Below the pieces are notes generated by a model. It did not search any database, had not been told where the DNA came from, and was given only the letters and a program-made list of their open reading frames with translations. 64,000 bases of DNA, taken from positions 896,001 through 960,000 of the forward strand of contig OY970172.1 of NCBI GenBank assembly GCA_963707655.1, in the 5' to 3' direction. The number at the start of each line of letters is the position of its first letter. Within the stretch, counting starts at the first letter, position 1. The stretch is from an uncultured bacterium (GTDB lineage: Bacteria > Babelota > Babeliae > Babelales > Vermiphilaceae). Shown in pieces: positions 4,459 to 14,697 of this stretch. A program made the position numbers and the translations under genes.

Positions 4459-5049
4459 TTGAATACATATTATGCAGTAGTAATTCTAACCAGCTTTCTA
4501 ATTGCTCGTGCAGCAGAAGAGGGTGGAGTGATGATTAAATCAAATGAACTGCAAAATGCACTAAAACATAAAATTAGTTCGGGGAACCCAGAAGACTTTC
4601 AAGAAATTTTTGGGTTATTATACGAATCAACTCAAGAAAGCTTAGCCCCTGCTTTATTAAAATACTCACAAGATGTGAAAAATTATACCCAAGAAGAATT
4701 AAAAGAAATACGCTGTTTTACCACTCAACGCCCAGCGCTTTTTGTGTCTGATGCAGCTGGATTAGGCGGCATTGTGACCGCTACTGCAAGCTTTGCTGCG
4801 GCATTCGCGACCGGCAGCCAAGCCGCTGGCTGGATTGCTCTGGGGTCGCTTTTTGTTGGTGCAGCGGGAATTGCAGCGCGTCCTTACATGACTCCTCATT
4901 CTCAACGTTATAAAGGCATTGCTAATGCGCAGACAGAGATCCAAGAAACTATCAACGGCACTCCCCTGATTGCCGATGTAGAGTTAGAAAGGTTGGAGTT
5001 CCTGCCGCCACAAGAATCAGAAGAACCCTCAATGGATGATTATGTATAA
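4459..5049 (+). CDS. Exported hydrophobic-hairpin protein, paralog 1
   Basis: Signal peptide, Gly/Ala-rich double hydrophobic segment, AQTEIQ motif shared with neighbours. Confidence 0.8.
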   Translation: MNTYYAVVILTSFLIARAAEEGGVMIKSNELQNALKHKISSGNPEDFQEIFGLLYESTQESLAPALLKYSQDVKNYTQEELKEIRCFTTQRPALFVSDAAGLGGIVTATASFAAAFATGSQAAGWIALGSLFVGAAGIAARPYMTPHSQRYKGIANAQTEIQETINGTPLIADVELERLEFLPPQESEEPSMDDYV

Positions 5050-5641
5050 AAAAGGATACGCAATAAACAAACAATTTTTAACAATACTCATGCTGACCAG
5101 CATTATTTCCGCACAAGCAATGGATCTTGAGCGAGGGGGCCGCCATCAGGCTATCGAAAATCAAGATAACCCCTCTCTTCGTAGCCACCTACAAAGAGCA
5201 ATGTACGATAGCCGGGCGCAAGACTTTGAAGATATGGTAAAATTTGCTGATAAACCGACGCTAATGGCGGCTTTGCCAGGTTTGAAAGAGCGCTCTCAAG
5301 GTTATAAAAAATGCCTGAAGTCGGGGACTGATAAGGGAAACAAATATTTAACTGCTAGCATCACCACAGGCGGCGTCTCAGGGCTTACCCTAATGCTGGG
5401 AAGTGTTTTTATTGTCGGAGCAGATCCTATTGCTATTACTGCTCTGCTTACCGCATCGGCCCTAGCAACGCTCGGTAGCGCTGGCGCCAGTTCCCTGCTG
5501 TATCTGCATAGCACAAAATCACACGCTCAGATCGAGGCTCAGAAAACAATACAAAAGTGCATAGCCAGTGCTGAAGCTGCAAATGCTCTTAGCCACGGAG
5601 AGCCGTATAGCCATGACAGTGAATCTGGCAACCAAAATTAA
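5036..5641 (+). CDS. Exported hydrophobic-hairpin protein, paralog 2 (start uncertain)
   Basis: NKQFLTIL signal peptide, AMDLE, hydrophobic hairpin, AQKTIQKCI. Confidence 0.8.
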   Translation: MIMYKKGYAINKQFLTILMLTSIISAQAMDLERGGRHQAIENQDNPSLRSHLQRAMYDSRAQDFEDMVKFADKPTLMAALPGLKERSQGYKKCLKSGTDKGNKYLTASITTGGVSGLTLMLGSVFIVGADPIAITALLTASALATLGSAGASSLLYLHSTKSHAQIEAQKTIQKCIASAEAANALSHGEPYSHDSESGNQN

Positions 5642-5672
5642 TTTATAGTAAAAAAAGAAAGAGGTATAAAAA

Positions 5673-6200
5673 ATGAACAAACAATTTTTAACAATACTCG
5701 TGTTGAGCTGCGTTGTTTCCATGCAACCCATGGAGCCCGCCGAAGATATTGAGAATGGTTTTAACCCATCTTTAATTGTGTTTAAAGCATCAATTGACAA
5801 TAATACATCAAGTGCTTTCAATGACCTGGTAATTGTTGCCGATAAATCAGAACTAAGAAAACTCGCACCGATGTTAAAAACCTATTCAAAAGATCGGCAA
5901 ATCGTCTTAAACGATAAGATAAAATTCAGTGAACGCATGGGACACGCATTAGGGGTTACTGGCGTACTCGGTGGCATCGGCACTTCAGCGCTTCTACTTT
6001 CCGACGCGAGCAGCACTCTTGCGGGCATTATCGCAGGAATTTCGGCCACCGCATTCGCTGCTGGCCTAGGCGGGGTTTGGTTAAATGCGATGCGGTATTC
6101 GCACTTGCATCATGAGCATGCTGCACAAACGGAAATTCAAGGCTTGCTGCTAGAAGCTGAATCTGAAACCCCAAAAAAGACAGGACTTAAAAATGAATAA
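5673..6200 (+). CDS. Exported hydrophobic-hairpin protein, paralog 3
   Basis: MNKQFLTIL signal peptide, ADKSEL, hydrophobic hairpin, AQTEIQ. Confidence 0.8.
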   Translation: MNKQFLTILVLSCVVSMQPMEPAEDIENGFNPSLIVFKASIDNNTSSAFNDLVIVADKSELRKLAPMLKTYSKDRQIVLNDKIKFSERMGHALGVTGVLGGIGTSALLLSDASSTLAGIIAGISATAFAAGLGGVWLNAMRYSHLHHEHAAQTEIQGLLLEAESETPKKTGLKNE

Positions 6201-6723
6201 ACAGCTTTTAATAGCGCTTATGGTCAGCAGTATTGTTTCTATGCATGCTATGGATCTTGAGCAAGGCAACACGCCTAAACCTCAATTTAATCCACTTTTC
6301 AAACGAGCAATCGATGATAATAAACCACAAGATTTTCAGAGTTTGATTGATCTTGCCGATAAAGCAAAATTAAAGCCGCATTTATCAACTCTAAAACAGT
6401 ATTCCCAAGAACATCAAGCACAGCTTGGCGGTATCGGAACAATGGTAATTGTCTGTAACGTTGTTGGCGGCATCGGAACAATCGGAGCAGTGGCAGGAGT
6501 CACTGCTGCAGCAGCAAGCGGCTTTACAAGCATCGAAACTATGACTTATCTTGGGACGGGGCTTGGTCTAGGCATTTTTGGCACATTATCTTGTCTCACA
6601 GCCACTATTATTGGTGGAAAGCGGCGCGCTAAAGCAAACGCTCAACAGGAGATACAGCAGTGCATAGCCGCTGCTGAAGCAGTAAGTGAAACCACAGATA
6701 CCGCTGGAAATGAACAGATATGA
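6193..6723 (+). CDS. Exported hydrophobic-hairpin protein, paralog 4
   Basis: MNKQLLI signal peptide, AMDLE, ADKAKL, hydrophobic hairpin, AQQEIQQCI. Confidence 0.8.
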   Translation: MNKQLLIALMVSSIVSMHAMDLEQGNTPKPQFNPLFKRAIDDNKPQDFQSLIDLADKAKLKPHLSTLKQYSQEHQAQLGGIGTMVIVCNVVGGIGTIGAVAGVTAAAASGFTSIETMTYLGTGLGLGIFGTLSCLTATIIGGKRRAKANAQQEIQQCIAAAEAVSETTDTAGNEQI

Positions 6724-7325
6724 AAAAAATATTATTAATTACTCTGGCAGCAAGCTGCTTTGTTTGCGTACACGCAATGGATACGACAGATAATAGTGAT
6801 GGACAGTTACTATCAATACGATATCGCTTTCATGCCCCAACCAGAAGTGTTGGTGTCGATCAAATAAAAGAAGCGTTCACCAATGCTGTGCAGGATGCGG
6901 AAGGGGACATATTGCAACTTATGTTCGAACACAAAGATTTCCCCACAGATACTACATCGAGCGACTTGTTGACCCATTTACAAAACACCTCACTCTCGTG
7001 TGAAGAAGCGGAGCACGTTGAAACTGCGAGGCGGAGAAAGTGTTGTTCGACATCAAAATTAATCACATATGGTTCGTGGCTTTTCAGTGCTGGAGCAACT
7101 ACTGCCGGCATAGTGGTAAGTGTTGCGACGCCACATTCAACAGAAGCAATTTGGAGCTCAACGGTCGCCACATTGCTTTCGCTGGGCGTAGGTTTTTTGT
7201 CACACATCCGCAATCAACGCGCCCTGGCTAAAAGTGCCAAGAAAATTGCCACACAACAAAAAATACAAGAATATTTGCAGCAACAACCGATAAATCCCGG
7301 TCCCAGTGCAGATAATGTAGTATAA
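6720..7325 (+). CDS. Exported hydrophobic-hairpin protein, divergent paralog 5
   Basis: Signal peptide plus AMD, two adjacent TM segments, TQQKIQ. Confidence 0.75.
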   Translation: MKKILLITLAASCFVCVHAMDTTDNSDGQLLSIRYRFHAPTRSVGVDQIKEAFTNAVQDAEGDILQLMFEHKDFPTDTTSSDLLTHLQNTSLSCEEAEHVETARRRKCCSTSKLITYGSWLFSAGATTAGIVVSVATPHSTEAIWSSTVATLLSLGVGFLSHIRNQRALAKSAKKIATQQKIQEYLQQQPINPGPSADNVV

Positions 7326-12537: not shown

Positions 12538-14697
12538 ATGCTAAAAAAAATCTTCGCAATCATGGCGCTGGCAAAAATAACCAATCTTTCATTCAGCGCC
12601 GAGGACAGTTACTCGATCACGAGACAAATTGCCGCAAATAGCCAAATGGTTCTAGCTCGTGCAGAGAGCAATAGTTCCGCATCTGAGATACAATGGAGCA
12701 AATTGGTGTCTGCTTCACGGGTGCTCTCTGATATGGTAGCAGATCTAGGCGCCTCTGCACCTATCAATGTCGCTCCCCTAGAAACACTGCTGCCTACCGT
12801 TTCCACAACAACACGAAAAAATATCATGCAGCTGATTGAATCAAGTGATCGGAAAGACGCTCTTCTTAAACTCGACAACAAAGAACTAAAAGACCTGGCC
12901 CACGCCGCCCGCTTGCTGGAAATACCTGCAATCCTTGTCCCTTTAAGAGAAATATTGGCAGAACAACTGCAGGATCCAGACAATCACTGGCGCAAAGCAT
13001 TTGAAAAAAATCCACTGGATGTGATTAACGGATTAAGTAAGGCCGGTATTGATATGAGTGATACTGATTTGGGTTTTGCGCTCATACAGCCTCACCTGCA
13101 CGAATTATGGCGGCCGGCGAAGCAGCGTACTATTTTTGGCGCAAGACTCGCATTACTGAATCCTAACGGCACCATCTTGGCATCAGCATCAGATAATACG
13201 ATAGACATCTGCCATCTTCACACAGGCGAAACAAAACACATTCGTGCCGGTCGTCACATCACTAAATTATCATGGAGTCCCGATGGGACCATGCTAGCCT
13301 CAGCATCACGAGGTCACACGATACGCATCTGGGATCCTCAGACAGGTTTAACAAAGCATGTTCTCACTGATCCTGTATGTTACGGACTGAATCATCATCA
13401 CACAAGTGGAATCGCGTGGTTGAGATGGAGCCCTGATGGCGCCACGCTAGCCTCAGCATCAGACAACAATACGATATGCATCTGGAGTCGCGAAGGCCAA
13501 CTAGTGCATTCTATTGCTTGCCACACAGGCCCGATCTGGTCGCTAGAATGGAATTGCAATGGCACCACGCTCGCTTCAGGATCATCAGACAGCTCAATTT
13601 GTATCTGGGATTGCGAAGGTCACTCAGTGCAGTCCCTTGATAAACATACCGCCCCAATTAGCGCATTAATGTGGAGTCCTGACGGTGCCATACTTGCCTC
13701 AATATCGTCTGACGGAATGGTATGCATATGGGATCCTTATAAAAATCAACTACTGCGTACTTGCAGAACGAGCCATTATAACGGGAAATGGTTAGCGACA
13801 TGGAGTCGCGATAGTACTATGTTCGCATCAGGATCAAACAATGCGATACACGTGTGGCATCATCGGACAAACCAGCTATTTGATATCACCGCCACGAACG
13901 ACAGTTACCGGAATGAAGCAATCAGTCGCCTAACATGGAGCCATGATAGCACCATGCTAGCCTCAAAATCACATGGTGGCCTGATACGCATCAGGAGTTC
14001 CCGCACGGGCCAACTACTGCACACACTCGTTGATTGCAGCGGAACCTGCTCATTGGCATGGAGCCATGATAATACCACGCTTGCCGCAGGATCGGGGCAT
14101 ACAGTGCGTTTATGGGATTCACGCACAGGCAAAATATTACAGGTAATTGTTGACGCAGACTGCCACAGCTCAATCGATTCATTTGCATGGAACCCTGATG
14201 ATACCTTGCTTATCACCAAATCAACTGACAACACAGTGAGTACCTGGGATATGACTCCGCTACTCTTTGCTCATCGCGTCGCTGTGCTAGATTCTCTGGT
14301 GCTTCTTACCCTGTTGCAGCACCCGAAATGGTTAATAGGCAGCGAAAACCTTCAAGCCTCAGATCTGATCAAAAGTCTCCGTTGGGCCAAATTTGTGCCT
14401 ACCAAAACGAACACCATTACCGCACCAATGCTTTTCTCTGTTATTGCTGAGAATCAATATGAACAGAAGAGGCAAAAAATAGCGTATTGGTTGGAGCGTA
14501 CAAAGACAGACATAAACGCATTACAAGCACAACAAACAGAACCAGAGAGACTCAATCAATGTCGTCGTTTACAAGAAGAAGAGATAGAACTCAAACAAGA
14601 ATCGCAAAGAGAAAAAGAAGAATTACAACGCAGATTATATTCTCGAAATAATTCTCGAGAAGTCAATGTCACCCCATCTTCTTGCTCAATTTCATGA
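12538..14697 (+). CDS. Exported WD40-repeat protein with Skp1/BTB-like N-terminal domain, coiled coil and CaaX end
   Basis: About nine repeats of LxWSPDGxxLASxSxDxTIxIWD, a signal peptide, and the ending ...SSCSIS*. Confidence 0.85.
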   Translation: MLKKIFAIMALAKITNLSFSAEDSYSITRQIAANSQMVLARAESNSSASEIQWSKLVSASRVLSDMVADLGASAPINVAPLETLLPTVSTTTRKNIMQLIESSDRKDALLKLDNKELKDLAHAARLLEIPAILVPLREILAEQLQDPDNHWRKAFEKNPLDVINGLSKAGIDMSDTDLGFALIQPHLHELWRPAKQRTIFGARLALLNPNGTILASASDNTIDICHLHTGETKHIRAGRHITKLSWSPDGTMLASASRGHTIRIWDPQTGLTKHVLTDPVCYGLNHHHTSGIAWLRWSPDGATLASASDNNTICIWSREGQLVHSIACHTGPIWSLEWNCNGTTLASGSSDSSICIWDCEGHSVQSLDKHTAPISALMWSPDGAILASISSDGMVCIWDPYKNQLLRTCRTSHYNGKWLATWSRDSTMFASGSNNAIHVWHHRTNQLFDITATNDSYRNEAISRLTWSHDSTMLASKSHGGLIRIRSSRTGQLLHTLVDCSGTCSLAWSHDNTTLAAGSGHTVRLWDSRTGKILQVIVDADCHSSIDSFAWNPDDTLLITKSTDNTVSTWDMTPLLFAHRVAVLDSLVLLTLLQHPKWLIGSENLQASDLIKSLRWAKFVPTKTNTITAPMLFSVIAENQYEQKRQKIAYWLERTKTDINALQAQQTEPERLNQCRRLQEEEIELKQESQREKEELQRRLYSRNNSREVNVTPSSCSIS

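Follow-up and report, generated by a model that had tools for sequence, protein, structure and literature searches.

Can a bacterium that lives inside protists carry, in a single exported polypeptide, both the part of a ubiquitin ligase that docks on a cullin and the part that captures the substrate? This question is raised by a gene in a window of 64,000 nucleotides (the whole stretch of DNA analyzed here) from a Babelota (Dependentiae) genome of 1.09 Mb that is 89% complete. For the neighboring MutL, the closest of the listed relatives (41–57% over the full length) include records named Babeliales/Dependentiae, as against 31–38% for other phyla. The initial annotation of this DNA, made from its letters only, read the product of the gene, P0001, as a Skp1/BTB-like domain followed by WD40 repeats, a coiled coil and a CaaX box, and proposed a one-chain adaptor and substrate receptor for a host cullin, anchored to membranes by prenylation. 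Babelota are described as intracellular parasites of protists with signal-peptide-rich genomes that contain genes for WD40, F-box and ankyrin proteins and for deubiquitinases (passages in PMC4378268, PMC6561590, PMC4776705), and for Chromulinavorax the signal-peptide secretome is put at 44% of the genes (passage in PMC6561590).

The Gene and Its Product

The open reading frame of P0001 is present with every peptide quoted in the initial annotation and with Cys-Ser-Ile-Ser directly before the stop codon (Table 1); a promoter scan gave results at chance level. The estimate of about nine WD40 repeats is borne out by the translation, which shows nine WD40-like repeats, and Pfam WD40 matches seven stretches (1.7e-46). 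The full-length model (aa 34–719, 80-row alignment, pLDDT 79, pTM 0.71) consists of a helical N-domain, a propeller of seven folded blades in which repeat 1 and part of repeat 6 are of low confidence, three short helices and a helix of 67 residues at aa 641–707, and a full-length fold search with P0001 returned propellers alone. The long helix (pLDDT 76–96) had been taken for a Glu/Gln/Arg coiled coil. The helix itself is predicted, but its heptad hydrophobicity is clear in the first half only, the remainder being rich in Glu/Gln/Arg/Lys, so that a coiled coil is plausible yet the segment may be a single charged helix. No second copy of the C-terminal tail was found elsewhere in the genome, and an attempt to assign the post-propeller helical module by profile failed, the profile being dominated by WD40 columns. 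At the other end of the protein, the signal-peptide-like stretch, which the initial annotation does not mention, is weaker than those of the paralogues and has Lys13 inside its hydrophobic core. In another part of the window (4459–7325, + strand), five tandem small proteins of 175–201 aa begin with a signal-peptide-like stretch and have, at their center, a hydrophobic hairpin rich in Gly/Ala; none of the five matched an NCBIfam family.

Table 1. Features of the P0001 gene and protein, in coordinates of the window.
Feature	Position	Strand	Basis and remarks
Gene for P0001, 719 aa	12538..14697	+	ORF reading; stand-alone between opposite-strand genes
Signal-peptide-like N-terminus (aa 1–20), weak hydrophobic core	12538..12597	+	Passes a rough rule of our own, best 8-residue hydropathy 2.86
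Skp1-derived POZ domain (aa ~36–144)	12643..12969	+	Profiles, hhalign, model; helical core confident, first β hairpin unformed in either model
Helix-5 motif matching Skp1 'AANYLDI'; Arg125-Leu126 replace the family's Asn/Asp and Tyr/Phe	12904..12924	+	Family alignment
Helical linker (aa 145–195), in place of the F-box-binding helices of Skp1	12970..13122	+	Model and structural alignments
WD40 propeller, nine sequence repeats (aa ~200–571); likely substrate-binding module	13135..14250	+	Pfam, translation, model
Post-propeller helices (aa 572–616)	14251..14385	+	First half of a helical module common to many family members
Long charged helix or possible coiled coil (aa 641–707)	14458..14658	+	Model; within the genome, in P0001 only
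CaaX motif Cys-Ser-Ile-Ser and stop codon	14683..14697	+	Translation and contigs of two runs

Skp1 Ancestry of the N-Terminal Domain

Taken alone, the N-domain of P0001 is silent in sequence searches. Pfam has no match for aa 21–190, a single-sequence search recovered none of 40 relatives and, among 1468 candidates, only P0001 itself, and a five-row profile of the domain run against PDB sequences returned designed repeats only and no Skp1. The family to which the domain belongs surfaced by profile search alone. Some relatives from the first profile search match Skp1_POZ at 1e-17, and the three nearest paralogues align with a clear Skp1_POZ member at 90% probability (hhalign, E 1.6e-6). A profile built from 26 rows of other genomes scores P0001 at 2.7e-12, a value that is partly circular because those rows had themselves been found with a profile of the paralogues from the P0001 genome. 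The widest family profile (A5, 139 rows) matches Skp1A of Dictyostelium with an E of 3.2e-23, and human Skp1 over residues 3–142, the match ending near residue 142.

Structure points the same way. When the N-domain model was compared with solved structures, Skp1 and BTB adaptors took all of the first 13 places (Z 6.2–7.5, rmsd 3.1–5.1 over 82–136 residues), with the proviso that Z scores under 8 lie within the range of common helical arrangements, and Foldseek gave probabilities of 0.93–0.99 with E values near 0.7. The domain that had been called Skp1/BTB-like can thus be specified as a POZ of Skp1 type, both the profiles and the structural matches speaking for a POZ fold. At the level of sequence profiles, the likeness of P0001 to Skp1 is real but remote.

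A Family of POZ-Repeat Fusions in Babelota

P0001 is not alone in its genome, which encodes four paralogues (two close, two distant) with signal peptide, N-domain and WD40 repeats like its own. A profile of these paralogues, run against 200 other genomes of the phylum, picked up relatives in 15 of them; the widened profile places the N-domain family in 71 of 261 Babelota genomes, with 164 further matches beyond those listed. For most of the listed matches the surrounding DNA was fetched (95 regions), which yielded 145 distinct domain-bearing ORFs, of which 139 domains were aligned. By motif counts of our own, the repeat domain is WD-like in 95 of the 145 members, LRR in 13 and unassigned in 37; 113 members pass a rough signal-peptide rule, also our own, and single genomes carry up to 14 or more copies. 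Pfam Skp1_POZ scores above cut-off in 45 of the 261 genomes and in none of 14 control genomes, the P0001 genome not being among the 45. Databases probably label some family members automatically as Skp1_POZ. Beyond the phylum, a search for such fusions had a weak outcome, with 10 matches among representatives and 5 among 7989 scored candidates, one of them named Dependentiae. In viral contigs no relative was found with one family member as query, and the best match of a viral fold search (E 0.94) was not significant. Matches in the Atlas scored 0.83–0.85 and are leads only.

Within the family several architectures stand out. An LRR-bearing subfamily in a tandem array (L071 of G092, L140 of G148) resembles chlamydial BTB-LRR proteins in its architecture. 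Two POZ matches precede the propeller in 16 of the 145 members (among them L059, L078, L091, L097, L126, L132, L134, L136, L154), although some may be split matches, and in one expansion (G204; L020, L030, L037, L105–L108) an extra helical box-like segment lies ahead of the POZ domain. The database representatives P0002 and P0004 are shortened, frame-shifted versions of two of the paralogues and probably come from another assembly. The P0001 genome also encodes three propeller proteins of exported type that lack a POZ domain (contig C1, 810795–813292 on the − strand, 66259–67602 on the + strand and 553351–554760 on the − strand). By eye, short helices close to their N-terminus resemble an F-box or a SOCS-box, and they carry the same post-propeller module; the last of the three ends in Cys-Ile-Thr-Ser.

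The Cullin-Facing Surface

The family retains the half of Skp1 that faces the cullin, the POZ half, which follows a signal peptide and is joined to WD40 or LRR repeats. Beyond helix 6 of Skp1 the family sequence runs into helices of its own and then into the repeat domain, and PF01466, the C-terminal F-box-binding domain of Skp1, was matched in none of the 261 phylum genomes, in a search in which no positive control rang. A cullin gene was likewise found in none of the 261 (again, no positive control rang), so that any cullin partner would be that of the host. An F-box reading of the linker was rejected, since a linker profile (60 of the 139 rows used) found no F-box among PDB sequences or in Pfam; a Leu-Pro motif like the start of an F-box occurs in the linker of 52 of 139 rows, P0001 being without it.

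The PxPN motif of Skp1 is described as contacting Cul1 (passage in PMC1257465), and the strand that bears it is conserved in the family as I-P-L-P, with Pro in 72 of 139 rows and Pro86 kept in P0001. This strand and the helix-5 'NY' are among the best-conserved positions of the family. The NY pair corresponds to Asn108 and Tyr109 of Skp1, which we take to contact Cul1; a literature search found no paper stating this contact. Asn or Asp occupies the first of these positions in 115 of 139 rows and Tyr or Phe the second in 126, and both residues are missing in three rows only, P0001 included, a loss common to its nearest paralogue. A change of the Asn of yeast Skp1 to Tyr is reported to leave SCF intact (passage in PMC11648922), so the loss of Asn in P0001 may be tolerated, a reading that does not cover the loss of the aromatic residue.

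Docking was carried out with the N-domain of P0001 and the N-terminal domain of a fungal Cul1 as a stand-in, the only cullin tried, with the family alignment supplied. The three runs scored 0.60, 0.45 and 0.60 against 0.11 for the best control, shared at least 50% of their contacts and had a partner pLDDT of at least 68, which supports binding weakly: of 157 solved pairs 116 attain the docking mark, and of 215 mismatched pairs 2 do, but only 18 of the 157, together with both mismatches, do so at 0.60 or under. Because a Skp1–Cul1 structure already exists and the prediction was given the family alignment, the docking shows likeness more than binding by P0001. The proposal of an adaptor and receptor in one chain fits the family well and is less sure for P0001 itself, in view of the missing helix-5 pair and the weak docking. 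Family members are quite probably cullin receptors. P0001, which may bind a cullin weakly or not at all, is predicted still to bind one, by a slight balance of probability.

The main rival to this prediction, itself unlikely, is that P0001 is a degenerate copy. Here the family would consist of cullin receptors, the POZ domain of P0001 would now be a structural base only, and the protein, anchored to a membrane, would serve as a WD40 scaffold or a trap for substrates with no ligase involved. Besides the loss of both helix-5 residues, as in the nearest paralogue, such decay would agree with the missing direct Pfam match, with the private tail and with the unformed first β hairpin; the N-terminal hairpin and three-stranded sheet of a POZ fold do not form in either model (pLDDT 41–75 in that part), the family retaining the strand pattern. 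However, P0001 keeps the Skp1 positions Ser60, Asp69, Pro86 and Leu127, its helical core is predicted at pLDDT 86–95, its docking is weak yet above the controls, and SCF tolerates the change of Asn in yeast (passage in PMC11648922).

Clearly less probable is the use of a different cullin, either Cul3 through a 3-box-like linker, in the manner of BTB-Kelch proteins, or Cul2/5 in the manner of Elongin C. In structural alignments the linker falls on the 3-box of BTB adaptors, Skp1 tied with the BTB-plus-3-box of KLHL22, SPOP and KEAP1 in the structure search (Z 7.0–7.5), Pfam BTB is matched by 8 of 139 family rows, and Elongin C ranked first in the Atlas for one member (0.85, a lead only). Against this, Skp1_POZ is matched by 50 of the 139, the family profile reaches Elongin C at an E of 4e-8 or worse, which favors Skp1 by 15 orders of magnitude, and BTB-Kelch proteins gave no match at E 0.01; moreover, an N-terminal dimerization extension before the POZ domain is absent. 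Slightly more doubtful still is a competitive inhibitor that would occupy Cul1 or Sgt1 and block host SCF ligases rather than redirect them, a reading that could draw on the common Skp1 surface used by Cul1 and Sgt1 (as described in part of PMC5282575) and on the members with two, partly split, POZ matches. An inhibitor needs no variable propeller, whereas diverged WD40 or LRR repeats and expansion to 14 or more copies per genome are the pattern of a substrate receptor.

The CaaX End and the Proposed Route to the Host

The C-terminus of P0001 has Cys at −4, an aliphatic a2 and a permissive X. Both the CaaX motif and the stop codon recur in contigs from two sequencing runs that belong to different studies. 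One agrees exactly and the other has an additional in-frame Ser shortly before the motif, and the end is thus not an assembly error. None of the four paralogues in the genome ends in CaaX. In the family, a slightly looser pattern finds CaaX on 3 of 136 other complete members, with no match at the 40 upstream positions of each, and the four CaaX members are scattered over the tree beside sisters without it, P0001 standing beside a paralogue with a basic tail (the tree is a quick version in which 69 of 136 forks are open). The motif is not ancestral and is a private add-on of P0001 rather than a feature of the family. Other family tails, classified by rough rules, are hydrophobic in 7 and basic in 20 of 139 members, with tail-anchor-like hydrophobic ends in L081, L084, L085 and L138 and NLS-like basic ends in L035, L139, L143 and L162, an alternation that suggests swappable address tags.

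The initial annotation had named two refuting outcomes, an N-domain without a POZ fold and CaaX ends no commoner than chance among the exported proteins of the genome. Neither came about, the N-domain being a POZ of Skp1 type and canonical CaaX ends being in excess: in the P0001 genome they occur on 3 of 384 exported-type ORFs against 0.35 expected. Plain CXXX ends are not enriched (23 of 1039 ORFs; exported-type, 9 of 384 against 5.9 expected). The canonical pattern was picked after the list from this genome had been seen and was then applied unchanged to a fresh sample, for which 20 other genomes supplied 60 stretches of 20 kb at fixed coordinates, four of the stretches being shifted by hand. 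In this sample, canonical CaaX was found on 6 of 425 exported-type ORFs against 0.15 expected (p 1e-8), and there was a milder excess among the remaining ORFs, those without an exported-type flag (3 of 677 against 0.65 expected), the contrast between the two classes not being significant (Fisher p 0.083). Among aaX-type ends, Cys stood at −4 in 6 of 21, against a background of 1.6%. These statistics depend on ORF and signal rules of our own, and related sequences are not independent. By eye, the CaaX ends of the genome have no evident DNA source in common. Three more orphan proteins with canonical CaaX are encoded on contig C1 (746532–747191 on the − strand, 664024–664431 and 496697–497116 on the + strand), two of them with signal-peptide-like starts.

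A protein prenyltransferase alpha repeat was not found in the P0001 genome, and prenylation of P0001 by the host, a prediction from the motif, is fairly likely. The same genome, at 89% completeness, contains two secretins and gave no match to marker families of type III, IV or VI secretion, the type III export gate included. That P0001 is merely a periplasmic or surface propeller without any cytosolic role, its CaaX a product of chance, is very improbable, for although plain CXXX ends are not enriched and an injection system was not found, Skp1 ancestry would be useless without a cullin, the canonical CaaX excess recurs in an independent sample, and CaaX was gained repeatedly within the family.

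The reading that we prefer, with a probability of roughly one half, is that P0001 is an exported, host-prenylated, membrane-tethered one-chain receptor on host Cul1. In this pathway, the signal peptide would send P0001 through Sec and then probably through a type II secretin, and the protein would reach the host cytosol. There, its POZ domain would take the position of the Skp1/F-box pair on host Cul1 by binding the first cullin repeat, while the propeller would capture a host substrate for ubiquitination. Host farnesyltransferase would modify Cys716, the CaaX end would be held on the membrane, and the long helix would space the ligase from it.

Relation to Known Systems and Significance

In its domain order P0001 resembles Skp1 together with an F-box/WD40 partner (SCF-Cdc4/Fbw7, SCF-βTrCP), with a homologous POZ core (~3–142) followed by helices and a WD40 propeller. 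The SCF pair is made of two eukaryotic chains, whereas P0001 is one bacterial chain with a signal peptide, in which the F-box-binding domain and the F-box are unmatched. Bacterial parallels are the PEX1 BTB-LRR proteins of Parachlamydiaceae, likewise an expanded family with a POZ fold and repeats in amoeba-associated intracellular bacteria and proposed to be one-chain cullin adaptors (passages in PMC4209131, PMC1257465). As described in these passages, PEX1 proteins combine BTB, LRR and type III signals, in contrast to the Skp1-type POZ, mostly WD40 repeats and Sec-type signal peptides of the P0001 family, which belongs to a different phylum; the two are set apart by description (PMC4209131, PMC1257465). 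P0001 itself has WD40 rather than LRR repeats and no Pfam BTB match, and no type III export gate was found in its genome. A passage from 2014 calls Parachlamydiaceae the only prokaryotes with BTB (PMC4209131). Cellular and poxviral BTB-BACK-Kelch adaptors of Cul3 are also single chains that act both as adaptor and as substrate receptor, and their 3-box overlaps the linker helices of P0001 structurally (on the description in part of PMC3597819). Their repeats are Kelch, whereas P0001 has WD40, no sequence match to them at E 0.01 and no dimerization extension. Legionella AnkB and the Pel/CMP effectors share with P0001 a ubiquitin-ligase module in a bacterial protein and a C-terminal CaaX for host prenylation (passages in PMC13081727; also PMC2916131), but AnkB is described as having an F-box that needs host Skp1 and as being injected by Dot/Icm (passage in PMC13081727), while P0001 brings its own Skp1-like domain and no type IV marker was found in its genome. 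Mimivirus BTB/POZ WD-repeat proteins, named in a passage of PMC5743647, also pair a POZ fold with WD repeats in a parasite of amoebae, but are viral.

Known already are one-chain BTB-repeat effectors in Chlamydiae and prenylated AnkB, and a Skp1-derived one-chain form was not found among the papers listed by literature searches. The BTB of the Mimivirus proteins is, to our knowledge, not of Skp1 type; as far as we know, bacteria that hijack SCF do so by placing an F-box of their own on the Skp1 of the host, and the one-chain adaptors described so far belong to the BTB proteins and serve Cul3. For Babelota, neither a Skp1-derived one-chain fusion nor CaaX use was found among the papers listed by these searches, which did not extend to subscription papers and bioRxiv supplements, or in the searched supplements of two papers on the phylum. 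Such papers do list WD40, F-box and ankyrin proteins, but their searched passages and supplements name no Skp1 or BTB.

As for its origin, a tentative scenario is that Babelota captured Skp1, removed the end that binds F-boxes and joined the remainder to propellers. The outcome would be one-chain Cul1 receptors by the hundreds, exported through Sec, independent of host Skp1/F-box control and provided with swappable tails (CaaX, tail anchor, basic NLS-like). Cultured Babelota and amoeba hosts exist, which makes cullin pull-downs and prenyl labeling feasible. A Skp1-derived one-chain receptor, if true, would amount to a third route, distributed over a whole phylum of protist parasites. The P0001 family also bears on whether the large signal-peptide secretome of Babelota acts in the host cytosol: if the capture scenario is true, the excess of CaaX on signal-peptide proteins would be sequence evidence that ordinary Sec/type II cargo needs no injection needle to get into the host cytosol.
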